From positions 4,774,001 through 4,838,000 of the forward strand of contig CM119379.1 in the NCBI GenBank assembly GCA_051294905.1: a stretch of DNA of 64,000 nt, in the 5' to 3' direction. The notes under the pieces were generated by a model, which saw nothing but the letters and a program-made list of their open reading frames with translations, ran no database searches and was not told where the DNA came from. Source of the stretch: Botryllus schlosseri (Eukaryota). Positions 18,809 through 43,977 of the stretch are shown here, one piece after another. Numbering within the stretch: the stretch's first letter is position 1; each line of letters starts with the position of its first letter. The position numbers were made by a program, and so were the translations under genes.

Positions 18809-18821
18809 TTTATTGTTTCTT

Positions 18822-20852: not shown

Positions 20853-21464
20853 TTATACCATCGGGCTATAAACCACCATGGTTTCACCAGGAAATATATT
20901 GGTCATAACTCGTCGATTTTCAGGTGCTTCTTGCGTGAGATCAAGGAATAAATAACTATGAGGTTGTCTAGCAGCGTCACGATAAGCCTCTGTTAAAAAT
21001 CTAGAGTTTGGATACATTTGTCGACCAAGAAAACTGATCTGCTGTTGGTCGCGCGGATTCTTGAAAATCACCATATACGAGCTTGAAAGACTCAAGTCAC
21101 GTGCCCCTTTACCCTTGTGGTACAGGTTCTGCGTGATATAGCAAATTGAATTGGCTGAATGATGTGAAAATCTTGTAAAGTAGTCTGCAATTTTCGCGGT
21201 CTCAGTCATGAAATCATCCACTATAATCAAGGTGTCTTCAGAGCAAATCTTCAACTCTTCTAAAATATCTAGACCGGCGTGGAATTCTACGTTATGCATC
21301 GTCTTGAAAACCTCCTGATAATTATTGTAACAATATACGACCCTGGATACACTAGGTTTAATCATTGATGTCGCATGTCTAATCAACTTTGCAACAAAAG
21401 TAGTCTTCCCACTTCTTGAAGGACCACTCACAATACACGCGAATGGGTGGATCAATTCCATCAT
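20853..21464 (-). CDS. FtsK/A32-like genome packaging ATPase, Pol-B1
   Basis: Walker A GPSRSGKT, Walker B LIIVDD, RFSHH, ITQN, VIFKNPRD. Confidence 0.93.
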   Translation of the reverse strand: MMELIHPFACIVSGPSRSGKTTFVAKLIRHATSMIKPSVSRVVYCYNNYQEVFKTMHNVEFHAGLDILEELKICSEDTLIIVDDFMTETAKIADYFTRFSHHSANSICYITQNLYHKGKGARDLSLSSSYMVIFKNPRDQQQISFLGRQMYPNSRFLTEAYRDAARQPHSYLFLDLTQEAPENRRVMTNIFPGETMVVYSPMV

Positions 21465-21498
21465 TTGTTGTTTATTGAAACTCGATAAAGTGCATGTG

Positions 21499-21506
21499 TT
21501 TATATA
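21499..21506 (-). promoter_or_regulatory. Putative TATA box upstream of ATPase/structural block, Pol-B1
   Basis: TATATAAA 35 nt before the ATG; conserved at 62373-62380 in Pol-B2. Confidence 0.55.
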
Positions 21507-21644
21507 TCAACAAGGTTGGGAATATCCACTGTTGTAGTCGTCGTGTTCTAGCGGAATATAAAAACCCAGTAAAGTTCGATTCAACAATTTTCCACGGGTT
21601 ATGAAATCTTCATCTGTTCCTCATCGTCAGGGGAAGTTGTAGTG

Positions 21645-21956
21645 TTACGAACGCTTCAGGTCGTCAAGCAGCTGACCCCAATCTGTAAAATAATAAATCA
21701 CATAAGAGGATTCATAATAAGAGAGGATTCATAGCGCTTTAAAATCTAACAGTGTTACTATACCAAACTATAGACCTTACCACGGATCACAAGTTTTGGT
21801 GGTCTGCTTTTCATCAATCGGGTATCGTCGACGTTGGGAGTTGTTTGGTAGAACCAAGAATCATGAACCGTGGTAATTCTCGCTCCAAGGTAATCATCTC
21901 TACATGTAAAGTGTATAAATCTAATGACATGACAGACTTTAGATAGCGTTATCAAT
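21645..21956 (-). other. Putative spliced exon pair between pPolB and ATPase (exon 21956-21781, 98-nt intron 21780-21683, terminal exon to TAA 21645)
   Basis: TTTTCCAG acceptor, GTAAGG donor, TTTTACAG acceptor; same 98-nt intron and same stop position in Pol-B2 (62099-62196). Confidence 0.55.
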
Positions 21957-22076
21957 CTGGAAAACAAATGATACGTTACCTCACACAAGTAAATCAAACA
22001 TATAAACAAGTAATAAACAAGTAAATCAAACACACAGAATATACAAATAAAATACAATAACACACAAAATATACAA

Positions 22077-25000: not shown

Positions 25001-25670
25001 TGTGTCTGGTCAATTCATACTGCTCATAAAAAAATCTTTGACAAACATCACATCGATAGCTCTCTGCATAACGGTTCACGTTAGTAATGAGACAGAAATG
25101 GTTGCTTTCTAAATGTAAGTACACAGGTTTCGCTTCAAATGTACTACGACGGAGTGCGACAGCTTTACCCTCAGTTTTTGTGTACACAAATATGGCCACA
25201 TTAAACAAGTCCTCGATATCGTCCAGCATATCAAGAGTTACACCAGATTCTACATTGATACCATATACCGAAGTGAATTGTTGGGCCATTGCTTTTGTAT
25301 CTTTTCCTAGCGAGTGACCAATACAGCGGAAAGCACAGAGATTGTCTCTGTACCGATTTCGATTTGTTTGATGGGTAAATGTCATTATACATCTCGCTCT
25401 CGCAAGCCACGTCGGTAGTTTAATACCAACACAACCAATCAACACACCCTCGGTAGGATATTCATATATCTGCGGGTTGATCAGACAGGTCGATTGGGTA
25501 TTTTGGAAAACATCCGACCGCTTACGATTGCTGACGCTAGTATTGCGCACGTGGTTACTGTTCACTACATACGATTTCACCGCTTGCCAGTTCTGAGATG
25601 TAATTTGCTGCTTTTGGTTGTCGATCTCTGGCGGTGCGTGTTCTTCATGATTCCAAAGGTGTCGAGTCAT
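22077..25670 (-). pseudogene. Protein-primed DNA polymerase B (pPolB), Pol-B1; two in-frame stops
   Basis: FDIESM, SFNGGRYD, GLDSNSLY, KLAGNSSYG, MDTDS; vOTU-like DNLCAF...H, Zn finger and VSR-like insert. Stops TGA 24125-24123 (TGG in Pol-B2) and TAG 22379-22377; all three pieces share one frame. Confidence 0.95.
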
Positions 25671-26028
25671 CTGTAAAATTGATACCGCGTGGCTACATTC
25701 AACACTTGGGAATATTAAACTAGTGTTACTTACAATGGGGTTTCTTTTTCGGTATCTTCCTTGGATCTTTATACTAAACAAGTAACACGTCAAACTATGT
25801 CGCTAACATAGTAATATAACAGATAACTCACCAGTAGACTTGTGTACCCCACTTAATCATTGAGTTCGCTTTGTCTGTTCAACAACAAAATCATTACATC
25901 ATGCTCAATAGTTCTACACAGCAATAACTCACCGTTTCAATTCTTTAATCCCACGGTTGTTTTGTCTGGTGGATAAATAAATAACAAATTATATTCATAA
26001 ATCAAAGTATTCGCACCGAATAACTTAC
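25671..26028 (-). other. Four-intron/micro-exon cassette upstream of pPolB, Pol-B1
   Basis: GT-AG introns 26028-25966 (63), 25932-25875 (58), 25831-25774 (58), 25733-25671 (63); exons 33/43/40 nt; ends CAG|ATG. Confidence 0.75.
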
Positions 26029-26335
26029 CTATTAAACCCTTAATCCCTGTGTCAATGTAATCTCTATATGTAAACTATATAAATCTAATGACATAACCGA
26101 CTTGAGATATGAATTAATGTTATCCACCTGGAAAACAAATGATACATTAACACACAATACAAAAAAAAAATCATATTAAACAAACATAATGTACAATTAA
26201 ACCCCAATAACGCCACACACACAATATATACAAGTACATCTCAATAAAATTCAATGACAGGATTATTTTCTTGGGTCGCTATGAAAATGATTGAGATCAT
26301 GAAAAGACACATCGGCATCGTATTTCGATATCAGC

Positions 26336-27043
26336 TCAACCAATCAACAAACCGTCAGTGGGGTATACGTAAAACTGTACATTAGCCAGACAGACTGCCC
26401 TGTATTTTGTATCTGGTCGAGAGTCTTGTAACACATCTAGTGCCGTTTCCAACCTTATAGATTCAACAAATTCATCGAATTCAGCTAGTGATGTAATCGC
26501 TGCTGGGACTTCTAATACGCTATCGATGTTCGCCGACGCATGAAAATACCGAAATCTCCCAGCCGCGACGTTATGTAAAATGATTCCATACGCAAAATTC
26601 ACTTTGAAACGAGTCGACTCTGAGAAAAATATCGCTTGGATATCGCGGAAAACATCCGGTATCTCACGATCGATGACTCGGATATTATACACGCGCCGAC
26701 TCTGATTCACTACATATGATTTTATCGCTTGCCAGTTCTGGGATACAACTTCTTGGTATTGGTCGCCTGTCTCTGGTGGTGTGTCTTCTTCCTCGCGAAC
26801 ACGACTCCGTCTGCGTCGACTCACAGACTTCAGCCCCACCTGACGCGCTATATCTGCGTGGTTTGGTTGCATTTCGATCGTTGTCGTAGAGTTGCGTTCT
26901 GTGGCTTCAACTCTTAAATCAGGCGTCATAGGATCACCAGAATTAATCGCATCAAAGATATCCGCATTCTCTTCAAATTGCGATTCAAATGCATTTGGTT
27001 CATAACCAAATTTATCAAGATTATCTATCTGAGCCTCGGCCAT
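26336..27043 (-). CDS. Stand-alone terminal-protein-like ORF (paralog of pPolB N-terminal domain), Pol-B1
   Basis: SQNWQAIKSYVVN...FKVNFAYGIILHN...YFH...RPDTKY...LLIG matches the Pol-A pPolB N-terminus (FKVNYAYGFLLYN...YFH...RPDTKF...LLGC). Confidence 0.8.
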   Translation of the reverse strand: MAEAQIDNLDKFGYEPNAFESQFEENADIFDAINSGDPMTPDLRVEATERNSTTTIEMQPNHADIARQVGLKSVSRRRRSRVREEEDTPPETGDQYQEVVSQNWQAIKSYVVNQSRRVYNIRVIDREIPDVFRDIQAIFFSESTRFKVNFAYGIILHNVAAGRFRYFHASANIDSVLEVPAAITSLAEFDEFVESIRLETALDVLQDSRPDTKYRAVCLANVQFYVYPTDGLLIG

Positions 27044-27124
27044 TGTACAATAATTAATCTAACTGCTCCAACCAACGTTTATGTCTGCGACAGTGAAGTA
27101 TAACAATCTGATCGTGGTGTTGGC

Positions 27125-27132
27125 TATTTATA
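27125..27132 (-). promoter_or_regulatory. Putative TATA box for the TP-like gene, Pol-B1
   Basis: TATAAATA about 80 nt upstream of ATG 27043, in the divergent intergenic region. Confidence 0.45.
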
Positions 27133-27504
27133 GATTTAATTCGATAGTAGCACGCGGTTGGATGGAAAATAATTCGGCGCGCAGGCCATTCGATATATAG
27201 ACCGCCCGAATACTGCGTAATCCCCAGAACCGATCGCGTTTCCGACTTTCAGAACCGGACGTATTTAGTGTGTCACAGATCAAAACGCGGCCGCAGATAT
27301 CTGATTTTTCAAAATCGCACAGCGCACTGCGCTTTAGTGAATTTCCTGTTTAGCGAAACGGGCGATTTTATTGTGTCACACATGTCATACGCACCCGCCA
27401 ACATCTGTTTTTTCGAAATCTGAGTGGTGTATTTCACCATTTTAACACATTGTGGTGTCATTCTCATGGTTTACTTTTTCAGTTGATAGTTACATATACT
27501 CGTT

Positions 27505-27858
27505 ATGGCAACTAGCGCGATTATTGAGAATTACCTTCTCTACTATCATAACTTGACAACCCCCACATTGAGCGAAACGGAAAAATTCATCCACGGAGTA
27601 CTAGATTTCTATGTACATGGACAAAACGTGAGCCGTGTTCGAAAGTGTGATTTTACCGCATTGGTTAACTCGATTCGATCATACGGCATCGACTGGAATG
27701 GGGTTTTTAGTGTCATAAGCATTGCAGCGATGAAAAGTGACATACGCACCCTAGCGACGTACAGAGATTTAGCAACAGACATCTTGAATACTCACTACAG
27801 TACATTGATAAGTGACTGGGTAAGAAGAAAATTCATTCGTGTCGTTTGTCACTTGTGA
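27505..27858 (+). CDS. Hypothetical protein (117 aa), B-family cargo
   Basis: Intact and conserved at protein level in Pol-B2 (50436-50828); no motif recognised. Confidence 0.7.
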   Translation: MATSAIIENYLLYYHNLTTPTLSETEKFIHGVLDFYVHGQNVSRVRKCDFTALVNSIRSYGIDWNGVFSVISIAAMKSDIRTLATYRDLATDILNTHYSTLISDWVRRKFIRVVCHL

Positions 27859-27973
27859 ACGGCATCCTTTCTTACAGAACTCCTGTAAAGTTTATTTCAA
27901 TCCAAGTCTATTCACGCGGGCCATCAGGATTATACAAAGACTGTTAACTCACTCAATACCACGTGCCTAATTC

Positions 27974-27981
27974 TATAAATA
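27974..27981 (+). promoter_or_regulatory. Putative TATA box upstream of the OB-fold gene
   Basis: TATAAATA about 38 nt upstream of ATG 28019; the Pol-B2 counterpart reads TATAAATG. Confidence 0.45.
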
Positions 27982-28018
27982 TCGACGGGTTTGTTGATGA
28001 CTCCCACTTTATCAAACG

Positions 28019-28630
28019 ATGACATCGAACAGCGTCAACACTATGCAAGTCGGAGCAACTTCAAATTTTCACGTCGGTGTCAAATTCGTCTCATCACCCA
28101 AAAGAGGTGGCGTTAGCCGATATCTCAAAGGTATATTCATCGATGGCAATAACGAAGAGATATCTTTCACGTGCTTCAATCGTGATTTGTTCGGGAACAT
28201 TGAGAAAGCATTCACCAAACGAAAAAAACTCATGGTCAAATCCGGTTGGGTTCAAATTGATAAATTTACTGGAAAACCTGCTGTATTACTTGGTCGGGCT
28301 TCGTCAGTAACTCTACATGGAAAATCGAGACATACGACTGAAGAATACCCATTATTGACCTGTGAATCGGTATACGGAAATAAAGATGAATACGTCTCGA
28401 TCGCCGCTGCTTGTGTTTCTCGAGAGGAGAAGATGGTCAATTCTGGTGCCGGAAAGGAGTTGAAATTATACAGTTTTACATTGAAGGATGATACTGGTGA
28501 GGTGGTTTTGGACCAATGGAACAAAGCCTCACTCGTACCCGGGAAGAAATATCAACTCACTCGTGTTAAAAACTGTGTCGGCAGATTGAAAATCGATCCG
28601 TTAACTAGACTTGTTGAATTGAAAGAATAG
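28019..28630 (+). CDS. Putative tandem OB-fold ssDNA-binding protein (RPA-like), Pol-B1
   Basis: Two about 90-aa beta-rich halves; IDGNNEEISFTCF and FTLKDDTGEVVLDQW resemble the RPA/SSB OB-fold D.TG.I..T.W strand pattern. Confidence 0.65.
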   Translation: MTSNSVNTMQVGATSNFHVGVKFVSSPKRGGVSRYLKGIFIDGNNEEISFTCFNRDLFGNIEKAFTKRKKLMVKSGWVQIDKFTGKPAVLLGRASSVTLHGKSRHTTEEYPLLTCESVYGNKDEYVSIAAACVSREEKMVNSGAGKELKLYSFTLKDDTGEVVLDQWNKASLVPGKKYQLTRVKNCVGRLKIDPLTRLVELKE

Positions 28631-28760
28631 TTTGCATATTTGAATACCACAATACAATATTTCATTTCACGTAAAATGTATGACCTATGTGTTTCGACAA
28701 CTGGGTTAGCGCAGTGTTGTTCTACTGATCGAGGTGTGAAAATTGCGCTATCGCGGTGAA

Positions 28761-29403
28761 GTTGTGACTGTAAACAGCAGACTATTCTGTAGGCGCGAAA
28801 CAGCGAATAAGCCAAAAGTATTATTCAGTTAGCAATCAATAGTGAGGAAAGAGAACACGATCAGTTATTTGACACGACTAAACTACGATATCATATATCA
28901 TAATTTACGATCAAACTATTTCGCACTGACTGGTCTAGTGTAATATTCGATAGTAGCACGCGGTTGGCCTTGAAACAATTCAGTGCGCAGGTCATTCGGA
29001 ATATAGGTCGCACTGCTTAATCCTCACAACAAGCCACGTTTCCGTTTGTGCGGTTATTGTTGGTGACTATTCAACACCACGCGAGAGATGTCTGAAAGTA
29101 CGAATCACGACCGCACCCATAAGAACACATGGCGAATCATCACAGATCCCGTAAGAATACATGGCGAATCACCACCACAGCCTATAGCAAAAAAGGCGAG
29201 TCACGACCACGAGTTTTCACGGCGAATCACCGCCACCGCCTATAGCAAAAAAGGCGAGTCACGACCGCACCCATAAGAACACATGGCGACTCACCGCCGA
29301 GAGGGGGGTCTGAAAAGGCGAGTCACCACCACGAGTTTCCAGGCGAGTCACCGCCGCACCCATAAGAGCCCATTACGAATCGCGACCGATCTACTATACT
29401 ACT
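28761..29403 (-). repeat. Pol-B1 right TIR
   Basis: Reverse complement of 14154-14796. Confidence 0.95.
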
Positions 29404-29409
29404 CTAGCG

Positions 29410-31320
29410 TACTTATGCGTTATCATAACATTTCCGATAGTGAATAAAATCTATAGCTAAACCTATGTCTATGCTATAATTTATCTCTTATTTTAAAACG
29501 CTATGCCACTACGGGTTGAAGCTATATCTTAACATTTCAGATCACCGACATCGCAGCTGTTCCAGACGCCAGCGTTCAAGCCTACATCGTTGCGCAGCTA
29601 CATGTATATCGAAGAAGTATGCCAAGGTCGTATCATTTCAAGTCGCTCAACTATAGCATAGATTGTACCCGCAAAATGCAAATTCGTATTAAGTGTAGCC
29701 TGCCTAGCGCCGCATATTACTCGATGTTCAGTAACGCCGTATTAATGTAAGCTGCGTTTGCCGGGACTATAGGAGCGAAGTCACTCAATACAAATTCCCT
29801 AATAGGCTCCTGCTAGATGATGATAATATGAAGCCACTAGTCCATAAGCTGCTGCTTTTAGATGCGTGATTTAAATAGCTAGTGCACTGATGCTTTTCCG
29901 ATAGTGAATAAAATCTATAACCTATGTCTATGCTATAATTTATCTCCTAAAACGCTATGGGTTGAAGCTATAACATCACATCTGTACCAGACGCCGACGT
30001 TCAAGTCTAGATCGTTGTGCAGCTATAACTATATCAAAGAAGTGTGCTGAGGTCGTATCAAAGTCGCTCAACTATAGCATAGATTATGCCAGCGAAATGC
30101 AAATTCGTATTAAGGGTAGCCTGCCTAGTGCCGCTTATTACTCGATGTTCAGTAACGCCGTAATAATGTAAGTTGCGTTTGCTGTAGGAGCGAAGTCACT
30201 CAATACAAATTCCTGGTTCTTGCTAGACGATGGTAATATGTAGCCACTATCGCCTGTATAAATCGAAAGCAAGTCGCTACTGCTGATTTAAATAAAATTC
30301 GCTACGCCACAGCGTCTTGAAGCTAAATCTTTAGCTAGCTTTACTCATGTCATAAAGGCGGTAAATTGCGAGTTGTAGCAAGCATCTAACTACTGAGATT
30401 ATGCCGATTTTAGAAGTCCATAAGCTGCTGCTTTTAGATATGTGATTTTAATAGCTAGTGTACTGATGCGTTATCATAACATTTCCGATAGTGAATAAAA
30501 TCTATAGCTAAACCTATGTCTATGCTATAATTTATCTCTCATTTTAAAACGCTATGCCACAGCGGGTTGAAGCTATATCTTAACATTTCAGATCACCGAC
30601 ATCACATCTGTTCCAGACGCAGGCGTTCAAGCCTACATCGTTGCGCGGCTACATGTATATCGAAGAAGTATGCCAAGGTCGTATCATTTCAAGTCGCTCA
30701 ACTATAGCATAGATTGTACCTGCAAAATGCAAATTCGTATTAAGTGTAGCCTGCCTAGCGCCGCTTATTGCTCGATGTTCAGTAACGCCGTATCAATGTA
30801 AGCTGCGTTTGCCGGGCCTATAGGAGCGAAGTCACTCAATACAAATTCCTGGCTCCTGCTAGATGATGATAATATGAAGCCACTAGTCCATAAGCTGCTG
30901 CTTTTAAATGCGTGATTTAAATAGCTAGTGCACTGATGCTTTTCCGATAGTGAATAAAATCTATAACCTATGTCTATGCTATAATTTATCTCCTAAAACG
31001 CTATGGGTTGAAGCTGTAACATCACATCTGTACCAGACGCCGACGTTCAAGTCTAGATCGTTGCGCAGCTATATCGAAGAAGTGGGCTCAAGTCACTCAA
31101 CTATGGCATAGATTGCGCCCGCAAAATGCAAATTCGTATTAAGGGTAGCCTGGCTAGTCCCGCTTATTACTCGATGTTCAGTAACGCCTAATGTAAGCTG
31201 CGTTTGCTATAGGAGCGAAGTCACTCAATACAAATTTCTGGTTCTTGCTAGATGATGGTAATATGTAGCCACTATCACCTAACCGAAAGCAAGTCGCTAC
31301 TGCTGATTTAGAGTCTACTA
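29410..31320. repeat. Pol-A left-arm tandem array (about 0.47/0.58-kb subunits forming an about 1.05-kb higher-order repeat)
   Basis: CCATAAGCTGCTGCTTTTA at 14111, 29842, 30418 and 30888; 29410 matches 30461 and 29842 matches 30888 (offset about 1.05 kb). Confidence 0.85.
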
Positions 31321-31412
31321 CTTTGAGATGATTGCTATAATGAACGTAGCGAATATCGCCCTTAAACGTACTAAGCAAACTTTGAAACTATTGATTTTAT
31401 TCGCATATACAT

Positions 31413-31868
31413 TTATACAATTTCATTTTCTTGCTTCAGCTCCTTGACGAAGCGTCGTACGATCGAATCATTCTTGCGGTGATCTTCGCCAAAGGAATTT
31501 AAATAACGTTCTGTACTCCATCCGCGCGCCTTATGGACGATGAAGCTTAGACAATGATGACCGCACGTTCTGGAACGTTTGTGCTGCAGACGCTTTATGG
31601 AGCAGGTATAATTTTCTGGTTCTATAAAGCACGCAATCTCGTATTTCAGCGGCATTAAGCCAAAGCTATCGTGAAAATGTGTCTCATCCTCATCAGCGTA
31701 AATGCATATCCAGTGACTTCCGATTTTTCGAGCCTCGTCATAATTGATCACGATAGCATAAGGAGGAGGGGGTCGCCTCGGCAGTCGATCGATAGGAAAT
31801 GTGCCAAGGAAAATATGTTTTGTTGACTCGCAGCACCACAATATTTGGTATATTTCATCCCCGTTCAT
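31413..31868 (-). CDS. Adenain-like maturation protease, Pol-A
   Basis: GSHWICI, FHDSFG, LQH, TCGHHC; intact. Confidence 0.92.
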   Translation of the reverse strand: MNGDEIYQILWCCESTKHIFLGTFPIDRLPRRPPPPYAIVINYDEARKIGSHWICIYADEDETHFHDSFGLMPLKYEIACFIEPENYTCSIKRLQHKRSRTCGHHCLSFIVHKARGWSTERYLNSFGEDHRKNDSIVRRFVKELKQENEIV

Positions 31869-33142
31869 AGCACGGTCACTTTACGACTGCTACTGATTTG
31901 CAATAGCTTTTGGAATTCCATGAAACAGAGCAAAGTAGTTTCCGCTGTTAGCCCGCCAGCAGGAAATGTGATTCGTAAACTTAAGGTACCACTCTTTTGT
32001 AAGTCAAAGCAATCATCCAAATCATCAGGGCGCAAATTATAAACCAGTAGACAGAAACCACTAGCGAACTCTTCAGGTGTTAGGAGTCCTGTGTTTTTCT
32101 CCATTGCACCCGTACCTTCAATCAGGTTATGGTAAAGCTCCGTGTAATGACCCTTATCGAAATCTAGCTCATAACCTCCCTCTGGAATCATAAATCCGTT
32201 CAGTTTCAGTTCGAGTCGTTGCATATTATTGTGTATGAAATTATAAGGATTTTTCGTAACATCTCCTTGAAAACCTTTCGTAGCTACCATTCCGATGATT
32301 AGGCGAGAAGGTAGAGTCCCGCTATATAGATTCCCGATATCTATCTGCGTCGTAGCAGCCGCAAATGTTCGGGTGATTAACCTCATGTCGATATACGGAT
32401 ATTTCGCCTGAGCATTCACCATCATCGCTGTCTTCACATCGTCGCTGACTCGTACGGTACATAACTGTAATTCCTTTTTTGTTAAGGTGAATTGACCGGT
32501 AGCATCTCCCATCATGAAAAAGCTTTTCGGATTCAAGGTAAGCTCAAACTCGAGAGGCACGTCATGTAGGATGTAGCGGTCTTGCAGACATAGTCCGTGA
32601 TGGATTTTCGCACGTATTTCCACCACGTTATCATCCTTATAGGCTTTACTCCTGTTGTAATATCCTTTGTTAGCCGAGGCGCTAGTTCCACCAATCGTAT
32701 CCATTTCTCCTAAAGTATCTTTTCTCCATCCTGAGGCCCTCAGTGTGCTATTTTGCACGTCAAGCGGAGTGAATAAATTGTGCAGATAGGACGAATAACA
32801 CTGTACTTTTATATCTTGTTTCAAAGTTTCGGTAGCGACTTTAATTTGTAGTTGAGAAATCAAGGAATCCAAGATATTATTTACAACACCAACATCATCA
32901 TCTGCGCCAATTGCTTCGCCATCTTTCTTTAATTGTAAATGAAATAAGAAATAGCTCTCGCTCAAATCGATAAAGTCTTCTGACCCTTCGAAGCGGAATG
33001 TTATCACACTAGAGTTGTTCGAAATCGGCGCTATCTTGATGATTCTTTTCTTTTCAACGCTAGTCTGTGTCGCGGGAATGTGAAATAAATCCAATGAGGG
33101 ATGTACCCCCTCTGGGGACTGTACATGAATTAACTCCGCCAT
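31865..33142 (-). CDS. Major capsid protein, Pol-A
   Basis: 425-aa intact ORF; NPYNFIH, GFCLLVYNLRPD; homologous to the Pol-B1 MCP. Confidence 0.9.
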   Translation of the reverse strand: MAELIHVQSPEGVHPSLDLFHIPATQTSVEKKRIIKIAPISNNSSVITFRFEGSEDFIDLSESYFLFHLQLKKDGEAIGADDDVGVVNNILDSLISQLQIKVATETLKQDIKVQCYSSYLHNLFTPLDVQNSTLRASGWRKDTLGEMDTIGGTSASANKGYYNRSKAYKDDNVVEIRAKIHHGLCLQDRYILHDVPLEFELTLNPKSFFMMGDATGQFTLTKKELQLCTVRVSDDVKTAMMVNAQAKYPYIDMRLITRTFAAATTQIDIGNLYSGTLPSRLIIGMVATKGFQGDVTKNPYNFIHNNMQRLELKLNGFMIPEGGYELDFDKGHYTELYHNLIEGTGAMEKNTGLLTPEEFASGFCLLVYNLRPDDLDDCFDLQKSGTLSLRITFPAGGLTAETTLLCFMEFQKLLQISSSRKVTVL

Positions 33143-33191
33143 CTATCAAGTCTCAAGTAACAAATGATGCTCATCACCGTGTAATATATAT

Positions 33192-33563
33192 TTAATCGAA
33201 AATATCTTTGCGACGTCTCTTTTTCGTGATCTTACGACCTCGTCATGGCATTTTTCTTTTTCTCAGTAAAGAATCGAGAGCGTTCCCAGCGGCTTCTTTG
33301 CCGCGTATTTGAAGACTATCGCCGACATTCTCTCCATTAAGAACATCAGAGGCTACTTGCGCACCGGTATGTAGTAGACGCTTCCCGAGTGATTTTGCAC
33401 CTTTCGAAATTAGGGGCATAACGCTTCTTCCGAACGAACGAAATAAGTTTCCAAGTCCATGACCTCTCTGCACTTTACCCCGAAAAAAATTGATATCACC
33501 ACCGCTCTGTTGGTGATAATAGTTTCTGAACGCCTCGCGATCACAGCAATAATGACTCCTCAT
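33192..33563 (-). pseudogene. pX/pVI-like core precursor, Pol-A (late nonsense codon)
   Basis: QRGHGLGNLFRSFGR; TGA at 33245-33243 is followed in frame by RGRKITKKRRRKDIFD*, matching the Pol-B1 C-terminus. Confidence 0.7.
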
Positions 33564-34262
33564 GATGCCTCAAAGCAAGTGTGAGATGAAGAGGCGCGTT
33601 CCCGAACTTTATAGCTTCACCTTTATCATCACGAAGCATAACGCGTATCTGGCTTACTCGCTCCGTATTCAGAGGAAAGAAATATATTTTTTGAATAGCA
33701 TATGCTGATATTCATCTATCCCCGTCGTAACGCGGATATTGCGTAGTAGAGGCGCACTCGTATCACCTACAATTTGAGGGGTGATGACATCCGTATAAAC
33801 TAAAACGTTGGTCACGGGCTCAGTTTCCCCTTGAAAGTGAATTGTTCTTCGTCTATGTAATCCGGCATCTAGCTCTACCTCCGAACGAGCGCCTCCTCTG
33901 AGAACGGGGTTTCTATTATCCATGAAAAGTCTCGGACCGCTGGAACTCTTGTAAGGTCCCGCTATCAAGACCGGACCAGAACCATCTACCCAAATAAACC
34001 TTGCCTTTTTCTGGTCGTGATTGATACGCTTCATCAAACTAATTTTATCATGATAATCACCAGCCGGGAAATAGTAACAATTATTATCGCCTTCCGCATC
34101 ATTCACGTACTATAATAAGCCGTCGTAAGGTTCGAACCTGGGCTGAAAATTATTTTTAAAAGACAACTCGGCAAGCCCTATCTCCCATTCACCAGAATCT
34201 ATCGGTTTCGCGAGATCGATAGTAAAATCAGACTCGTGTGACGTAATATGAATATATTTCAT
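33541..34262 (-). pseudogene. Penton-like paralog 2, Pol-A (one TAG plus one frameshift)
   Basis: MKYIHITSHES...EIGLAELSF...LL*YVNDAE...VYTDVITP...GDTSAPLLR; frameshift in an A-run near 33690 restores YFFPLN...LRDDKG. Confidence 0.72.
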
Positions 34263-34270
34263 AATGCAAC

Positions 34271-35068
34271 TCACCGTCTACGAAAATGCAATACAACACT
34301 CGAAGGAGAACTTCGAAAGGGTATTTTCTCACCCTTCTCATCAAGTAGCGATATTTCGATGCGTTCTAGCCTATTTATATTAACAGGGAAATAAAAAGGC
34401 TTCGTGTAATATTTCGAAAATGATTTACGATTGTTCACCTGTACGACGCGTAACAACGGTAAGAGCCTACCGCTATCTTCTTGTGGCTCAATGATATTAC
34501 AATGAACATAAACGAAATCGATAGTCGGATCATGTCGCATACGAAAGTTCAAATGAATGATACCCCCAGTGAAAAAATAATTCCACAATGTACAATTAGT
34601 ATTCGGGAAATGAAACACCAATAACTCCTCCTTCGTTTCCTTATGCATAAGAGCACCGTACAATTCTCCGCGACGTAGCAAGCTACTATGCCCTATGTCC
34701 GTCTCTGGTCGCAATTTGTCGGTTACCTCGTTATGAGGTATAGAGATAGACATACTATGATTTTCTGGGAAACATGTTACTTTTGCATCAGGATTGTCTC
34801 TTTCCAACGATCTATACATGTCATATAACGAGTCGTATTCTCCCAATTTAAAATGAAAGTTTCTTGCTCTCTTTTGCGATCTGATCCCATACCTATTCTT
34901 CGTGATCCTATACTGTTTTTGATAATCCGTAGGGAAGGAGATCTCAGCCAGAGAAACTTCTGTATCTTCCACGTTTTTCGGGACGTCCAATTCAACGCAA
35001 TAACTCGCTGTTGTATTATCAGGAAATTTATCCATGGAAGCGTTCGAAAATAGCGTGACGTAGCTCAT
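34271..35068 (-). CDS. Penton/minor capsid protein paralog 1, Pol-A
   Basis: VTLFSNAS...FPDN...VSLAEISFP...VYVHCNII...LPLLR...KPFYFPV; likely ATG at 35068. Confidence 0.8.
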   Translation of the reverse strand: MSYVTLFSNASMDKFPDNTTASYCVELDVPKNVEDTEVSLAEISFPTDYQKQYRITKNRYGIRSQKRARNFHFKLGEYDSLYDMYRSLERDNPDAKVTCFPENHSMSISIPHNEVTDKLRPETDIGHSSLLRRGELYGALMHKETKEELLVFHFPNTNCTLWNYFFTGGIIHLNFRMRHDPTIDFVYVHCNIIEPQEDSGRLLPLLRVVQVNNRKSFSKYYTKPFYFPVNINRLERIEISLLDEKGEKIPFRSSPSSVVLHFRRR

Positions 35069-35274
35069 ATTTTGAGCTTGGGATTCGGAAGCATATAACC
35101 AACGCAAGAGGAGAGGAGAGATATCCAAAGCTCTTTGTTCCCATTCGAAATGGTAAGATTATAGAGAGAGAACGATACGATGACCAGTATGATTACTAGT
35201 TGCGCCAAAAACTGATAAAGGTTCCGACTAGACGATATCCTTCTTATCGACCCAGCTGTCGAATCCACTTCCAT
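35065..35274 (-). CDS. Small two-transmembrane protein, Pol-A
   Basis: Hydrophobic helices and LLSSCVGYMLPNP; syntenic with Pol-B1 18822-19037. Confidence 0.7.
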   Translation of the reverse strand: MEVDSTAGSIRRISSSRNLYQFLAQLVIILVIVSFSLYNLTISNGNKELWISLLSSCVGYMLPNPKLKI

Positions 35275-36226
35275 ATCCCAACCAGCGTACCAAATACTGT
35301 TCTCGTCCCGCGCGTTTACGCCTTCTTATAATCTTCTCGACACGCCAAGCTTGCGGTTCTTTTACGCGTTGGAGCTCCTCTCTATAAAATCTACCCTGGA
35401 TGACTTCACCACCGTAATCACGTAAGCGATACATTGGGGGATCCCCCTTTTGGGCGTCTGCGATATAGAAAATTTCCCGTTGCCAGTTGGGTAGGCTGCT
35501 TTTCTCAAAAAGATATCGAATTTTCGATATACGGACGGGTAATCCTACAGCGAGGTCGGGATGTTTAGCTTCTTGAAATCCGTAAAGTCTTCTCCAAACC
35601 GATTCCTGATTAGACGAATTCACTTGGTTGGGAGCCATAGCAATGCTACGATGGTATGTTCTGTTGTAGGAGTAAGTAAAGTCGTCAAGGACGTTCACGT
35701 AATTCCTCGTGTTATTTTTTGTGAAAAATCGATACATAATCGCTTTCATACTACGAATCACTCTTTCGACGACAGAGGATTTTAATTCGCTCCTCGTATA
35801 GAAATATCTAACTTTGTTCTCCTTTAGATAGTTCTGGAAAGCGCGATTGGTATATTCGCTACCTTGATCGGTTTGTAGCACTAACGGTACGCGTTCACGA
35901 AACACACGTTTGAAAGCAGAAATCATACTTGAAGCAGTTTTATTTTTAATCGCTATCATCCAAAGGTATTTGCTAAAAATATCAATCACGACCACAACAA
36001 AACGAAAACCGCTATTGTACTTTGAAATAGATTGCAGATCCATCAAATCGCTCTGAAACTGAGCATTGATACCGGAGACCACTACACGTTCACGCCTAAA
36101 TTTCTTACGTAACGGAAAATGAAAAGTATAAGTATCTTGTCCTTTAAGCCATTCTTTTTCCTTTTGCAAATAGGCGCCCCTATACGATTTGGGCTGTTTC
36201 GGATCAAAATAGTCTACGTCTCCCAT
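35228..36226 (-). CDS. DDE integrase with chromodomain, Pol-A (intact)
   Basis: QSDLMD, QTDQGSE, VERVIRS, YLVRWLGY; 332 aa uninterrupted. Confidence 0.95.
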   Translation of the reverse strand: MGDVDYFDPKQPKSYRGAYLQKEKEWLKGQDTYTFHFPLRKKFRRERVVVSGINAQFQSDLMDLQSISKYNSGFRFVVVVIDIFSKYLWMIAIKNKTASSMISAFKRVFRERVPLVLQTDQGSEYTNRAFQNYLKENKVRYFYTRSELKSSVVERVIRSMKAIMYRFFTKNNTRNYVNVLDDFTYSYNRTYHRSIAMAPNQVNSSNQESVWRRLYGFQEAKHPDLAVGLPVRISKIRYLFEKSSLPNWQREIFYIADAQKGDPPMYRLRDYGGEVIQGRFYREELQRVKEPQAWRVEKIIRRRKRAGREQYLVRWLGYGSGFDSWVDKKDIV

Positions 36227-36552
36227 TCTTTCCCGTATATACGGGGATTAGGCTTACGCTGTCTCTTATGAAGCCAGGGAAACGAAGGTTGTGGAATCCG
36301 ACGCGGGCGTTTCTTTTGCGGGCGCTTTTCTTTCGCTACGGGGCTCGCGAGCCCCGTGTGTGCGGCGGGAGGGCGGGCGGTCGCTGCGTCTACGTCTTTT
36401 CTCAAGTTTCTCAGTTGAGCAATACCATGCCTATACAGAGCTAGTTTCTCGGAAGCATTCAATGGAGAGCTTTTAATTTTCGATATATGTTTATCAAATT
36501 TCTTTTCCCATTCGTCCTTGCTTCGAAATGCGGGGAATTGTAGTTCACGCAT
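36214..36552 (-). CDS. Conserved Polinton hypothetical protein, Pol-A
   Basis: EKLALYR motif and synteny with Pol-B1 20080-20475. Confidence 0.65.
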   Translation of the reverse strand: MRELQFPAFRSKDEWEKKFDKHISKIKSSPLNASEKLALYRHGIAQLRNLRKDVDAATARPPAAHTGLASPVAKEKRPQKKRPRRIPQPSFPWLHKRQRKPNPRIYGKEWET

Positions 36553-36952
36553 TCTTCCCGAAAAGTTTACCCAACAGACTCCCGATGACGGGGATTGCAG
36601 CGCCTAATATAGCTAAAACAGACTAGTTAGAAAAAAGTTGCTATTTTATCATAATCTTTATACCTGAGAGGAATCCACCTTTTTGTAGCACCCTCCGTTG
36701 ACCTCTGCGAGTTTTTTGCGCCAGCAATTGTCTGATATCGGATTTGTGTTTTCCAAGCCTCAACTTTCTCGACGGGGAGATACGTACTGTCCCCGAAGCC
36801 AAGTTATGAACGCACTGGCAGACGCATTTTAAAAATTGATTGTTCGATAAAAGTTCTTTTCGCTGTTTCCCTTTAGCGTTTTTCAAAAGTTTTAATTTAA
36901 CGTGATAGTCGCTCAATCGTTTTCGAGATATGTTGCTTCCCCTCTTCGACAT
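36545..36952 (-). CDS. Basic core (pVII-like) precursor, Pol-A; two exons (36952-36664, 36612-36545)
   Basis: Removing a 51-nt GT-AG intron (36663-36613; contains a stop and CTAAC) gives ...QKGGFLSAILGAAIPVIGSLLGKLFGKNA*, matching the Pol-B1 homolog's C-terminus. Confidence 0.78.
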
Positions 36953-36987
36953 GTTGAATGCCCTAAAATCTGCAGCGCGAGCTGTAT

Positions 36988-37605
36988 TTATTCTTGATAT
37001 ACCGTCAACTTTTGATATGGGAATATTTTGCTGCGAAGACGATAATTTTCGTCTGTCTCTTGCGTCACGTCAACCAGTATGTACGAGAACGGTTTTCGAG
37101 TTGCCTTTTTATAAGCCTCCGTAAGGAATCCGGCTTTATCCGGGAACATTTGACGTGAAAGAAAACTGATTTGACTCGCATCACGGGGATTTTTAAATAT
37201 CACGATATAGCTCGCACTCAGGGTCATATCCCGAAAGCCTTGGCCCCTATAGAATAAGTTTTGACATATGAACACGACACTGATCTTTGCGTGATGGCTG
37301 TATCGAGTGAATAGATCTCTGGCCTCTTTCGCTTCCGTCATCATGTCGTCGATCACCAAGAGAACGTGTCTATTTCATTTCTGTAACTTTTTGAGCTCGG
37401 AGAGCCCTTGCGAAAATTCTACCCCTTTCATTTTATCGTACAACGCCTGATAATTATTATACAACCATACGATTTTTTCAGGAGCCGGTCTAATCATCTT
37501 CTCTGCGTTCTTCACCAACTCATAAGTAAAATAACTCTTCCCGCTACTGCTCGGACCAGCCACGATCATCCGAAACGGAGCATGCAATGTACGTATTCGA
37601 TCCAT
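36988..37605 (-). pseudogene. Packaging ATPase, Pol-A (one in-frame TGA)
   Basis: GPSSSGKS, then LQK*NRHVLLVIDD, RYSHH, VIFKNPRD; TGA at 37377-37375. Confidence 0.9.
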
Positions 37606-37608
37606 TTA

Positions 37609-40600
37609 TTACAGAGATAAAGGCAATGTATGAATTCCATCATTAAGCACAATCCTTTTATAATAACCATAACTCAAAGCACTTCGATATTGCTTATACG
37701 TAAACATATCGCTCCCATAGCAACGAAAACCGCTATTGACGCCACCCGTGATCGATCTATTTTGAAGAATGCCTTTGAAATCTTTGAAAGTTTTGTTGGC
37801 CGTTTTTTGAAGCCCTTTCGAGTTGTACTTATCGGTGTCGCCTTTGCAATAATAGGTCTTGGAATTCAGGCCTATAAATCCATGACCGACCCATTCCTCT
37901 TTGAATAAACCAGGTATACGTTTCGAGTAATTGCGAACCTCAATGCAGCAAGCTTTATCAGTTTTAAAACCAACGGGATCTCGTTCAAAATCGCATTTAT
38001 GCTCTGCACATGCGCGAGCCACGAACCATTTGTCGTGATTTTCAAAAAATTGTTTTTTCATGGAAGGCTTGATGAGAGAATAGATCGTATCGGAGCTTAA
38101 GCTTATGTACGCCGAATCAGTATCTGTTTCGAGGAAAGCCCAATCGCTATCGTCCAAATACACATGCAGACAGTCATATAGGAACTGGAGCATTCTCAGC
38201 TTGGCACAGCAGAATATAAAGAAGCCCACAAAGATTGGGTTTTCGTGACAAATGTTTAGCGGACGCGTAGCTACTTCGAGCAAGCCTTCATCGCTCTTAT
38301 CAATTTCAACAGCATCGACAAAAATTTTTTTTTCAACGCGCGATGGTAATTCTTCCGACGTAACGTATTCGTGTTCCCTATATTTATTAGGGTTTTGAAT
38401 AGTACGGCCGAAAGCACTATTTCCAATCGTCTTCCAGGTCAACGCCTCCATTTCACGGGCCGGATCTTTCGGGAGGACATCGCCTTTGCTACGCTCAGAG
38501 GATACCCGCTCAACGAAGGGTGTGAAAACTTGTTTTGGTTCATATTCGACAGCTTGGAATACGCGAGTCACGATCATGCCACTTTTCAAGTACCACTGAA
38601 GCAAATCCGTATTAAACAACTGTTTTTTCGTGAAATAACTAGAGCCCAGAAATTTTTTTGGAAACTTAATATTGTTTTCCTTGGCGTATTCACGCATATG
38701 TTCACCGATATCGCACTCGTTTACTTCCATATGTTTGAAAAAAGGAGGTAACTCTTCGAATTTCGATTTTAAATGGTCGGGACAATGAATGTCACACTCG
38801 ATTGCACCGAAAAATGACCCGTCTAGCGTGCGCTTGAGCAACTGCGCTTCAGTGAGATAATAAGCTTTCGTGACTTTACGCTCGAACTTTGAGACAAATT
38901 GCGCAATTTCGGGGTCTCGTTTCATATTCGTCCAAACGCACTCCTTCATTCGGATAACGGTATATCCCAATTTTTCCAAATACTCCGTGTTTTGTTTGGT
39001 GAGCTCACGCCTCTCGGCGTTCTCTTTATCAGGGAAGCAGCTCCTACAAGCGTGGTAATAGCACCCATCGTACTGAAAGATGAGTTTACCGGCGCTCCCG
39101 TCGATAAATAGGCGTTTATTTCCGATTCTCACTTGACTACCGTTCCAAGCGTGCTGAATTTTGATGTCACGAACGTGACTTTCGTATTCCAACCATTCAC
39201 GCTCCGCATGAGTAGGCCAAACGCGCTGTTCATGGAATTTTTGCTTTTCCTCATCAAAAATCCACCTTATAGGATAACCCGTTGGCATATTTTGATTTAT
39301 GCATCCCAAATACAAGGCATTTGCGTCATATCCTACTACTTTCTTGACGGTTTTAGCACTGTCACCGTAGCGAAGACTGCGTATTTTCGTTTCATCTGCC
39401 ATAGCGTATCGTGACGTAATCTGTGACAAACCTCCTATCAAGTTGTTCAGAATCGTTTCGTGAAGGTCAGCATTGGCCTTATTCAGAAGAGTGATTTCAT
39501 AGCAATCACGAAACATCAGTCTACTTGCTATATTCGGAAGGCTCACGTTACCCTTGAACATATCGATACCAAGCGTTTTGTAAAATTCGAAATTGTTATT
39601 CAGCGCAGTTAAGAAGCCAATGACGTCACCTTCGTTGTAATATCGGAGAAAATCACGGAATGTGGTCATACCCTCGCGTTCCCATACAGCGACGCATTCT
39701 GCGTATTGCTCTTCCGTTATATTCGAATTGCGGAACGCGTTGTAAAACGATTCATGACTCGGTAGCGACGTTTCGTCGAGGCGTTCGATGCTATCAGGAT
39801 ATTCGTTGGGGAAATAAAATTTTGCGTTCACCCCATCCCCGTACAGCTTCATGTAAGCATCCAAACTATAACCTGGACTCAGGAATAGCGAAATGTCCAG
39901 AAATTTTAATCTGTGCGTTGCGATTGTCAAATAGGCGCTGTTCCTTTTCAAAACGAAGAATCCGCTTTCCTTGTGCAAGGATTTGATTAAATATTTCTTG
40001 CATAAATTCAGATCGTAGCGCGAAGAATTGAAACCGATTATGGGTATCTGATCAAGCCACGTATGAAAGCGATGTGAAATATTATCCAAATAGGATCTTC
40101 TATTGGTAGGATCGATCAATTTCCGTTCTTCAATCAAATTCTCAAGTTCGATTATTTCGCTAGCGTAAGATTCTCGCATTTCGGCTGAGGCGAGTTCCTG
40201 TACGCGATAAATTTCCCCAATCATTTCATCGACCAACGTCTGCGGGCAACCCTCGGATATGAAAGTTTTAGTTTCATTCGTTACGTTATTTGATAAGGAT
40301 ACGGAGACGGGGACGTGCCGATTAACGTATTCCACTTTTGCAGAATTAGCTCTGAGCTCATCCTTCACGAGCATGGATTCAAAGTCAACACATACGGTAC
40401 GGGAAGAATCTCTTTTGTTCCTCAACGAAAATGCCTTCGGATTCCAATTGTTCGAATACGGTGGGTTTCGGTCGATATACGCCGCTAGCATATTTCCGAG
40501 TCTGGGACGTTGTGCATTTTTGTTTTATATGCTGCATCATATTGTCCTTAGTCTTGAAGAAAAACTTGCACAATTCACAAAAGAATGTCTCGGAATAATT

Positions 40601-41485
40601 TTCGATATTTGTAATCAGGCAAGAATGACCACTTTCCATGTGTATATGAACCACTGGTCCATCCGCTTCAGACTGTCGCAATAAAAATGGTTGATGATCG
40701 CGTTTTTCGTAAACAAGTATCTTTACGTGAAAACATTCCTCGACTTTGCTTAGTTCATCGAGTGGTACACCATCATCTATAGGGATACGATATCGTTCAC
40801 GGAATTGAGATGCCAATAGTGCGACGTGCTTCTCGTCTCGTTTTTTCTTGATGAAATGGGATAAGCGTCGAAAGAGGCATAGCGAATCGTTAATCGGTCC
40901 TCCTTGTCTATTTCGAATGAACGCTCTAATATGACGACATTTTGTTACCTCCTTAGATATCGATGCGGTGGGGCAGCCCAATAAAACTCGTGGCATTTCG
41001 TACAAGAAAAATTGGATATGTAATATAGCAACGCAGTAAAACTTAGTGTCCGGTCTTGCTTGTCTCGCCTGCTCGTAAGCAGCTGATAAATCGATTTCGT
41101 TGATAAAACGATCAAAGTCCTCCCGTGAAAGTATAAGTGTCGGTAGATCCAAAACAGCATGGGTTGATTGAGGATGAAAATAGCTATGTCTTTCCGTCTC
41201 TCGATTATACAGCAGGAAACCATATGCATAGTTCACTTTGAATTGACGCAATCTTCTCGGGTATATCGATGACATGCGTGCATGAATATCATTCATACCT
41301 CTCCCGATCAGACGTACATTGATCGCCTCTCTTGCACCCCTTGCAACCCTCCTGCTGTTAATCCATTCGGAATCGATAATCGAGTTGGAGTGCGATTGCA
41401 AAACCTCTGTTGCGTCGTTATCAAAACCGAGCGATTCATCGATGATGAAGCTAGCATCTTCCTCGTAGCGTCTTCGACGAGCCAT
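37609..41485 (-). pseudogene. pPolB with fused TP-like, vOTU-like, Zn-finger and VSR-like domains, Pol-A (one frameshift near 40390)
   Basis: DFESM, GFNSSRYD, GYDANALY, KTIGNSAFG, ETDTDS; DSLCLF...GH; CELC...H..C; QYDGCYYH; YRMC/VDFES junction shifts frame. Confidence 0.95.
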
Positions 41486-41518
41486 ATATTTTTAAGTATA
41501 TTCTGCAAAAATACACAT

Positions 41519-42091
41519 TCACAAATTTATTCCATATTTCAAACGCAATTTACACTTGAAAGCTTCATAAAGAAATAGAAATTTGATATTTTCTAAGTTA
41601 CGCAGTTCATTGGCATCGGGACCAAATTTATCGATATCTTTAAGCACATTTTTTGCAATAACGAGAAAATCTTTTTGCCATTCCCCATATCCTTCCAATG
41701 AGACCATTTTTCGCCAAGTAGCAACTCTCTTGATATCATCATCAATAAAACCTTCAAAGGTAGCGGTCGTGGCGTCTCGCGTACGTCTTGTGTCTCCGGA
41801 ACCGTATTGTTGTAACAACATATTTAGATCTTTACCACAATTAAAAGGTTCCATATTAATCTGAGAAAACAAATCAAATATACCAGTCATTGTACTGTCG
41901 TTTGATCTCATCGAATTTGATGTAAAATTCACGTGCATGCACACTGCCTCATCAATAATTGTCACGTCAACATCACTAGCCTCGTCCTCTTTACTCTTTT
42001 CAGCTGCAATCGTAACTTCGATCAATTCTACCTCAACATCGGAATCGAAAACACCAATCGGTAATGTATCTGCTTGATTATCAGGAATCAT
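41519..42091 (-). CDS. Hypothetical acidic protein (190 aa), Pol-A cargo
   Basis: Intact ORF downstream of a TATA box; no motif recognised. Confidence 0.6.
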   Translation of the reverse strand: MIPDNQADTLPIGVFDSDVEVELIEVTIAAEKSKEDEASDVDVTIIDEAVCMHVNFTSNSMRSNDSTMTGIFDLFSQINMEPFNCGKDLNMLLQQYGSGDTRRTRDATTATFEGFIDDDIKRVATWRKMVSLEGYGEWQKDFLVIAKNVLKDIDKFGPDANELRNLENIKFLFLYEAFKCKLRLKYGINL

Positions 42092-42176
42092 AGTTGTTCA
42101 TTTGCTAACTACGTCGCTTGCATTCTCTATTGTCGACATCCTTTTTGTGGTATAGTTTAGTTCGGATTCGAGCCTC

Positions 42177-42407
42177 TTTTATATAGTGAACCACATGCGC
42201 TTGACATGCGGAGAGCGCGTGATTGTACTCGTGGCATTCTTACTAGCATTCTAATTAATGATAACACGTACCAGGAACGGATATGAGCTACGTGTCCTTT
42301 TCTGTGAGCGGGCGACGTTCTAATTTCCGTGATACGACCTCGGGGCCTATCATTCGATCGGTACCAAGCACATATTCCAATGGTGCATAGGTCAATATCT
42401 ATATAAA
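42177..42407. promoter_or_regulatory. Divergent promoter region with two outward-facing TATA boxes, Pol-A
   Basis: TATATAAAA on minus (42185-42177) and TATATAAA on plus (42400-42407), between head-to-head ORFs. Confidence 0.55.
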
Positions 42408-42444
42408 GCATACTGATCATGAGAGTATATCAATTCGGATAGCA

Positions 42445-43026
42445 ATGTCGAACATTGATCAAAGCGATTCGCTACCTAAGCGTAGTGTGGATCCTACAAA
42501 TTACGCTACATTCAACTGCGCTTGCATCGGTACCACAAGTAGCATAGAAATACGCGAAGATGAAACTCGGACGGGTCCCATTGAACAGAACCAAGCTATG
42601 ATAAATTACAGAGGGGAACAGATTTATGAATGCTATGCGAAGCATAGAGATGTAACTGTCTCCCCGTTGAATGATCCCGTTTTCTATAACATGATACGCT
42701 ATGCTCGTAGACTAAGCACATTTATGCGGTGGCCGGATAATATCAATACCTCCGGAGCCGAGCTCGCAGACTGCGGATTGTTCTATTTGGGCTATAAAGA
42801 TCATTTAAAGTGTTTCTCGTGTGGCGGGCTGTTTCAAAATTGGTTGCCGTGCGATGACCCCTGGCTCGAGCATGCAAAGTTTTATCCTTCGTGTCCTTTT
42901 CTTATAAAGCGCAAGGGGTTGCCATATATTCGTAATGTCTGTTATGCGACACCTAATATAAGAAGAGGCTCGACTAAATTTGATGGCGAGGTGGAATTGC
43001 GTGATGACTGTTGTACTTATGTTTGA
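42445..43026 (+). CDS. Single-BIR inhibitor-of-apoptosis (IAP)-like protein, Pol-A cargo
   Basis: RLSTF..WP...LADCGLFY.G..D.LKCFSCGG.F.NW...DDPW.EHAKFYPSC: full BIR with CxxC...H...C zinc ligands; no RING. Confidence 0.93.
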   Translation: MSNIDQSDSLPKRSVDPTNYATFNCACIGTTSSIEIREDETRTGPIEQNQAMINYRGEQIYECYAKHRDVTVSPLNDPVFYNMIRYARRLSTFMRWPDNINTSGAELADCGLFYLGYKDHLKCFSCGGLFQNWLPCDDPWLEHAKFYPSCPFLIKRKGLPYIRNVCYATPNIRRGSTKFDGEVELRDDCCTYV

Positions 43027-43525
43027 TATTTCTTTTCAAAGAATGAGTCTAGCAATCCGTGGAGATACTATTCTGCCCCAGGGGCCCTATAGAAAAGACT
43101 TGTATCTTTTTAATGACATCACAAAATTACGTATCGAAGCCTCGAATGGAGCAGAATTGACCTCGGATCAACTCTTTGTACATTCCACAAGCGGGACCAT
43201 TCAGAAATATCGAGCCACTCTGAAGCATGAAGGAGGTTTGGTCGTTACGTATACTCGAGACGGGATCGAACATTATCAACCTCTGAATCCGGCTGACGAA
43301 TTCGTCATCTATTCGCCCAGTGTAGTTGTTCCTAATCCCGACCTTCCGCTCGTGTCGTATATACTACAAGCCAGTGATCGATACATCAAACAAAACGGTC
43401 AGATCGAACGCGAGAACTCGGATCGCAGCGTCGGATGGCAGCAAAGCGGTGTACCTCGAAACATCAACCGATCTGGAGGATTTCAACACGCGAATCGACG
43501 CAATGACGATCAACGATATCATTGA
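42980..43525 (+). CDS. Hypothetical protein, Pol-A cargo (likely start 43043)
   Basis: Open 181-aa frame followed by AATAAA; no motif recognised. Confidence 0.55.
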   Translation: MMARWNCVMTVVLMFDISFQRMSLAIRGDTILPQGPYRKDLYLFNDITKLRIEASNGAELTSDQLFVHSTSGTIQKYRATLKHEGGLVVTYTRDGIEHYQPLNPADEFVIYSPSVVVPNPDLPLVSYILQASDRYIKQNGQIERENSDRSVGWQQSGVPRNINRSGGFQHANRRNDDQRYH

Positions 43526-43759
43526 CATGCTCTTTTTTGAAATAAAATGAACTCCTACACTATACAATGCTATTTCAATGAGACCGAGTAAAGTGTTAGG
43601 AGACAAGAAAAGCGCTGAATCGTATGAAATGAGGTGACTACAGGGTTCGAACCTACAACCTAGATCAAGATAGTTGGCTGATTCCTCTGTGATGACGTTA
43701 TGAATGACGCGAGAATTCATATTCTCAAAAACAGCTCAGTACGCATAATCATGATGATA

Positions 43760-43977
43760 TAGCAATGGGCGTTATATAGGCGGACGATGGGGCAATGGGC
43801 GTGGCTGATGATGTGGCAATGGGCGGATGATGTGGCAATGGGTGTGCTATAGGTGTGGCAGGTGACGTGGCAATGGGCGTCCTGTAGGCGTGGCAATGGG
43901 GGTCATATAGGCGTGGCAATTAGGGCGACGTGGCGAAATTTGATTGGGCGGCGCCAATTTCAGGTACCCTCACTACT
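43760..43977 (-). repeat. Pol-A right TIR
   Basis: Array of GTGGCAATGGG units ending in GGTACCCTCACTACT. Confidence 0.85.

Follow-up and report, generated by a model that had tools for sequence, protein, structure and literature searches.

Adenoviruses depend on host splicing, and their protein X coding sequence is not known to be interrupted by an intron. The adenovirus protease cuts at an XGG motif and, according to the portion of the source that deals with the motif, tolerates glutamine at P4 (PMC4246237). Among the described relatives of the element presented here, the Beta-class adintoviruses or Mavericks encode a GasderminX protein, and the main text of the paper that describes it contains no word with 'splic' and a single, unrelated 'intron' (Starrett et al., 2021; PMC8502044). 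The core genes of vertebrate and nematode Mavericks are intronless in the sections of the two accounts that cover them (PMC8097293; 10.1101/2022.07.12.499685). Introners have been described in dinoflagellate eupolintoviruses, where, in the sections concerned, they are mostly young, were gained after integration and are under-represented in coding regions (PMC12166617). Full-text literature searches turned up no paper that describes an intron fixed in a virion gene of an animal Polinton.

The locus described here is part of an element termed Pol-A and lies within a window of 64,000 nucleotides, the whole stretch of Botryllus schlosseri DNA that was analysed. The features needed for the description are the following.

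12160..43977, no strand assigned: Pol-A element, with AGTAGT at 12160, ACTACT at 43972-43977 and imperfect inverted repeats.
36984..36991, minus strand: TAAATA box, likely a TATA-like promoter, ~30-35 nt upstream of the start codon and overlapping the ATPase stop.
36664..36952, minus strand: GasderminX (protein-X-like) exon 1, 96 codons plus one base, a basic helical domain ending in QKGGFLS.
36674..36685, minus strand: QKGG, predicted cleavage motif of the adenovirus protease type, separated by 10 nt from the 5' splice site downstream.
36613..36663, minus strand: phase-1 U2-type intron of 51 nt, assigned from sequence and copy comparison, with GTATAA first, TTTTAG last and an in-frame TAG at 36643-36641.
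36626..36630, minus strand: predicted branch site CTAAC, assigned from copy conservation, with the branch A at 36627, 14 nt from the 3' end.
36545..36612, minus strand: exon 2, two bases and 21 codons (ILGAAIPVIGSLLGKLFGKNA) plus the stop at 36547-36545; a hydrophobic/amphipathic protein-X-like tail, assigned from codon constraint and a hydrophobic moment of up to 0.51.
36214..36552, minus strand: downstream 112-aa ORF without a Pfam match, whose ATG (36552-36550) lies inside exon 2 and is the first ATG after the intron acceptor.
31413..31868, minus strand: likely cysteine protease and candidate QKGG enzyme, assigned from position and an H/D/Q/C pattern.

The 6-bp target duplication of Pol-A matches at 5/6 positions. 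The minus strand carries, in order, the polymerase, the ATPase, the GasderminX gene, the 112-aa ORF, the integrase, a small hydrophobic ORF, two minor-capsid-like ORFs, a 124-aa ORF, the major capsid gene and the protease gene. Apart from that of the integrase (35228-36226; rve, E 4e-13, plus a chromodomain), these names derive from weak matches, size and order. The ORFs have the expected size, order and motifs, with sub-cut-off matches to IVa2/A32 (E 0.005-0.02) and to a DJR-like fold (E 0.005); no PolB family match was obtained for the polymerase in the library search. Eight Pol-A copies were mapped, four of which have a polymerase of ~1290-1310 aa, and at least some Pol-A copies have one undivided ORF each for the polymerase, ATPase, integrase, two minor-capsid-like proteins, capsid and protease. 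The GasderminX intron is the only one seen in the core reading frames of the eight.

The Pol-A copy in the window is decayed: the ATPase (37605-36988) contains an in-frame stop, the polymerase (41485-37609) is spread over two frames, and two downstream ORFs at 34271-33243 are shorter than in other Pol-A copies. A pyrimidine tract followed by CAG (41511-41503, minus strand) lies 17 nt before the polymerase ATG, and equivalents are present at 9-17 nt in all five Pol-A subfamilies; it is a candidate acceptor for a 5' leader joined in cis or in trans. At 33242-33143, a gap of ~50 nt that starts with TAAATA lies between the 124-aa ORF and the capsid ATG in all five subfamilies, where the Pol-B families have 1-5 nt, and this gap likely represents a dedicated capsid promoter in Pol-A. 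A gene with a BIR domain (IAP-like; Pfam E 1e-18) was found at 42445-43026 on the plus strand and occupies the same place in A1 and A2 copies. An A3 copy (L066 element; L105:7060-8274, gene strand) has a 405-aa ORF after the protease region, the start of which resembles the BIR gene. The cargo differs between Pol-A subfamilies.

A second element, Pol-B (14154-29403), is nested in the Pol-A sub-terminal repeats and has 644-nt inverted repeats and an exact 6-bp target duplication, and a further Pol-B copy on the opposite strand extends from ~49500 to the end of the window. The segments 19878-21149 and 62729-64000 are 99% identical while the neighbouring parts reach 87-94%, and the two copies may have undergone conversion or recombination with each other recently. 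The Pol-B homolog of the GasderminX gene had been taken as intronless in the preliminary description. This holds for uninterrupted copies elsewhere in the genome, but the two copies in the window (20819-20472 and 63059-63406) carry the same in-frame TAG at codon 46.

In the unspliced state, the Pol-A GasderminX frame ends at the TAG inside the intron after 103 aa. The preliminary description had proposed that a spliceosomal intron of 51 nt at 36663-36613 completes this core-protein gene, and the comparison of copies confirmed it, with the splice signals kept in five subfamilies. As had also been stated, the intron begins just after the predicted cleavage site, and the loss of the C-terminal tail upon retention follows directly from the position of the stop. 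The new stop had further been said to overlap the next ATG; the frames of the GasderminX gene and the next ORF do overlap, by 8 nt, but the stop and the ATG share no bases. In the Pol-B families, the overlap between the GasderminX gene and the next ORF is ATGA.

A DNA search of the genome yielded 40 scored hits among 48 candidates, and all 40 spanned 550-554 nt, so that none was without the 51-nt segment. Removal of 24 duplicates from loci L001-L080 left 56 distinct copies, and the intron was again present in all of them. Among these, GT was found in 55/56 (the donor is lost in copy L067), AG in 56/56 and CTAAY in 54/56, with CTAAG in the other two. Intron lengths were 50 nt (2 copies), 51 nt (25), 52 nt (8), 53 nt (1), 54 nt (19) and 67 nt (1), and an in-frame stop in the exon-1 frame was present inside the intron of every copy. 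A requirement for lengths that are multiples of three was rejected because 12/56 copies break it. When 30 copies were aligned, a 1-nt indel was observed in six, every one inside the 51 nt and none in the 357 nt of exon. Variable sites amounted to 10/51 in the intron, 26/289 in exon 1 and 6/68 in exon 2, and the GT, the branch A and the AG showed no variation.

A protein search (150 scored of 208 candidates) resulted in four further subfamilies, 20 loci of which were fetched. The five Pol-A subfamilies share 47-88% protein identity, and the position and phase of the intron were identical in all fetched loci. Between subfamilies the intron interiors align at 43-60%, values that refer to one representative each and to AT-rich sequence without a shuffle control, and the distance from the branch motif to the 3' end ranges from 10 to 17 nt. 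Judged from these alignments, the shared position, GT, branch motif and YAG amid diverged interiors are more than chance. A U12-type (minor) intron, which has the strict 5' consensus RTATCCT, was rejected, as the donors GTATAA, GTAAAA, GTAAAC, GTAAAT and GTGAAT do not fit. A TTTTAG before the A1 start codon was likewise discarded as a conserved acceptor, being absent in A2-A5.

In the first 18 codons of exon 2, differences among the five subfamilies at codon positions 1, 2 and 3 numbered 53, 12 and 102, and the codon differences over 10 pairs were 83 synonymous versus 42 non-synonymous. This third-position excess, together with the intron lengths of 50, 52, 53 and 67 nt, argues that exon 2 is read as protein via removal of the segment. 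The earlier suggestion that these elements use the host spliceosome is thus upheld by the conserved splice signals, the tolerated frame-shifting indels and the codon constraint on exon 2, and the lineage very likely needs the host splicing machinery for its predicted membrane-active tail.

The protein split by the intron is GasderminX with a protein-X-like tail, likely a virion core protein. Exon 1, exon 2 alone and the two Pol-B proteins gave no Pfam match, PDB sequence and fold searches returned nothing significant, and a single-sequence homologue search with exon 1 found nothing; a profile search did find homologues. Pfam Adeno_PX was detected in 25/79 aligned homologues at E up to 0.1 and exceeded the cut-off in P0076. 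Homologue P0121, which has 45% identity to exon 1 (E 3.8e-15, tail-free search), was modelled with a pLDDT of 83, and its BFVD match was the GasderminX of the Terrapene box turtle adintovirus (E 1.2e-5, TM 0.70/0.76). The PDB fold search with P0121 gave no significant match and gasdermin was not among the listed fold matches; for this model, the 'gasdermin' part of the name has no support from the PDB fold matches listed. The GG of the cleavage motif is invariant in 79/79 aligned homologues, and QKGG fits the relaxed rule for the adenovirus protease as given in the relevant portion of PMC4246237. Exon 2 encodes 21 of the 25 residues of the predicted C-terminal peptide. The protease ORF showed a weak PDB match to the S273R protease (E 0.2) and no Pfam match. 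The presence of GasderminX in virions, its cleavage and its membrane activity are predicted.

From the signals and the copy comparison we conclude with considerable confidence that the 51-nt segment is a lineage-wide intron, likely gained once and likely removed by the host major spliceosome for the sake of the tail. Host RNA polymerase II would transcribe the gene in the nucleus from the TAAATA box, which lies upstream of the GasderminX gene in 7/7 families compared. The short intron would be spliced like the host's own introns of 55-74 nt to yield a 118-residue precursor, the precursor would be packaged, and the protease of the element would cut after QKGG and free a 25-residue amphipathic peptide that would resemble the C-terminal piece of adenovirus protein X. 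The intron would persist most likely by a ratchet and not by benefit: Polintons replicate DNA to DNA, exact intron loss is rare without a spliced RNA template, and damage to the splice signals would remove the conserved tail.

An unlikely extension is that the captured intron, whose acceptor may in addition give rise to the mRNA of the following gene, became a splicing-controlled switch of a virion protein. For the switch itself, in which retention would give a tail-less core protein and splicing would set the amount of tail or keep the tail off in dormancy, several observations can be cited. The intron lies 10 nt past the predicted cut site, so that the tail-less product would be like the protease-matured N-terminal piece; every one of the 56 copies has the in-frame stop; the size is at the small end of host introns; and the only intron seen in the core ORFs has lasted through ~50% protein divergence. 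However, the residues read into the intron are unconserved, with the stop 3 to 12 codons in and sequences that vary among and within subfamilies, a stop within 50 AT-rich bases is unremarkable, and the persistence is explained without a benefit. A working switch is consequently considered distinctly unlikely. The use of the acceptor for a host spliced leader in addition to cis-splicing, which would give the downstream 112-aa gene a separate message, is in keeping with the first ATG after the acceptor at 36552, 60 nt on, and with the AG kept in 56/56 copies, but the donor is also kept (55/56), and the intronless families with the same gene order express the downstream gene without such an acceptor. 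We regard this double duty of the acceptor as improbable.

The origin of the intron was investigated in the intronless relatives. In families B1 and B2 the tail is in one frame at 20/20 fetched loci, and in families C and D it is in one frame at 8 loci (10 were fetched, one more of which proved to be B1 and one had no ORF). In the best 120 of 340 database homologues from a profile search, 118 continue from the GG motif into a hydrophobic tail; the profile included tails and thus favours intact homologues. One of the other two, P0001, has a stop three residues after GGFLS, like an intron bearer, and the sequence of the second, P0030, is garbled. The contiguous register of P0050 and P0057 is identical to that given by splicing. 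Of the best 150 of 304 homologues from a tail-free search, for which exon 1 was the query, 115 comply with the rule for an intact tail; many of the other 35 have a tail on reading, and ~10 diverge after the motif. The database gene calls of contiguous-tailed homologues could likewise hide splicing, as could P0121, which comes from a single contig of 961 nt and may be a spliced transcript and not an intronless gene. Scans for related loci in viral contigs and metagenome contigs found none.

The trees, which have no root and little resolution of their deep branches, were calculated from the exon-1 part only, with 93-99 columns. A rapid tree with 128 rows placed P0001 and the five subfamilies on a single branch (SH-aLRT 99). 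A more thorough tree with 45 selected rows again united the intron bearers on a single branch (94/79), with P0121, which has a contiguous tail, as sister (99/94) and the intronless families of the genome placed elsewhere (98/82). The single branch of intron bearers, the contiguous-tailed sister and the contiguous tails in four other families make a single old gain in the Pol-A ancestor likely, a much simpler history than a long series of precise losses. The 'gain or loss' between Polinton families of the preliminary description is hereby reduced to what was likely one gain in the Pol-A lineage, based on the contiguous-tailed relatives and the tree. Presence of the intron in the ancestor of the gene family, followed by its loss from the remaining lineages, would be compatible with trees that have no root and little resolution at depth, but it would require either that the root fall on the branch leading to the six intron bearers or that the intron was precisely lost many times, in the face of P0121 as sister and of more than 100 diverse homologues with contiguous tails, and is very improbable. 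A recent introner origin was rejected, since an A3 intron query (one subfamily tested) retrieved only the two element copies that carry it; an introner origin far in the past would leave no copies visible today.

The host assembly comprises 495 Mb and contains spliced host genes. Top-scoring introns of host chaperonin genes measured 55-74 nt, with 8/9 junctions resolved, and the Pol-A intron at 50-54 nt is slightly shorter than these 8. Single-exon host chaperonin genes are located at C7:10230688, C9:19924282, C9:21391512 and C6:21422887, while their paralogues contain many short introns. Of four raw RNA runs, ~6-12% of each of which was read, one gave no alignments; in the other three, labelled as the same species, the depth over 36268-37095 was below 1 and no joint was found at the listing threshold. 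The only stretch of real RNA depth was at 43290-43600 (30-45 on both strands in two runs); the reads there come from diverged copies that continue into unrelated sequence, and likely belong to a distinct repeat or satellite family that is expressed. The view of the segment as a disabling insertion or a decayed spacer, with the gene ending at the first stop or reaching exon 2 by read-through or frameshifting, could appeal to the lack of spliced reads at this depth, to an unspliced 103-aa ORF that looks complete and to the commonest lengths of 51 and 54 being multiples of three, but it is hardly credible given that exon 2 is unharmed in the 12 copies with lengths not divisible by three, that several subfamilies have two or three in-frame stops, and that exon 2 is under coding constraint while the interior has diverged around a preserved GT, branch motif and AG.

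An intron-bearing GasderminX gene would be labelled as truncated by an annotation based on open reading frames. An old, fixed intron in a virion gene would imply that, for as long as the lineage has existed, its transcripts have been made in the host nucleus and spliced, and such nuclear transcription and splicing would set it apart from virophage-like relatives that rely on cytoplasmic giant viruses. The locus also provides a clear and datable example of a likely gain of an intron by an element that replicates as DNA. The exon junction can serve as a DNA-proof RT-PCR marker for the timing of virion gene expression, which gives a practical handle on whether Polintons make particles.

Compared with the known systems, the presumed gene set of Pol-A (polymerase, integrase, ATPase, protease, major and minor capsid), its inverted repeats and its 6-bp duplication match those of vertebrate and nematode Mavericks as described in the relevant sections of the two accounts (Barreat and Katzourakis, 2021, PMC8097293; Widen et al., 10.1101/2022.07.12.499685). 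The Beta-class adintovirus/Maverick GasderminX, as presented in the main text of Starrett et al. (2021; PMC8502044), is similar in the P0121 fold and the protein-X-like C-terminus and differs in that the Pol-A tail is encoded by a separate exon, the second. The precursor of adenovirus protein X (mu) shares the basic domain, the XGG cut motif and the hydrophobic C-terminal peptide, as far as the portion of PMC4246237 on this precursor extends; in Pol-A the N-terminal domain is larger and helical, and the cleavage is a prediction. The eupolintovirus introners, in the sections of PMC12166617 that treat them, are likewise spliceosomal-type introns within Polinton-like elements, whereas the Pol-A intron appears old, fixed and lineage-inherited, with no copies elsewhere (A3 intron tested). 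As judged from the sequences compared, the Pol-A case is that of an intron kept at one spot in five diverged subfamilies, in a gene that is unbroken in almost all relatives.
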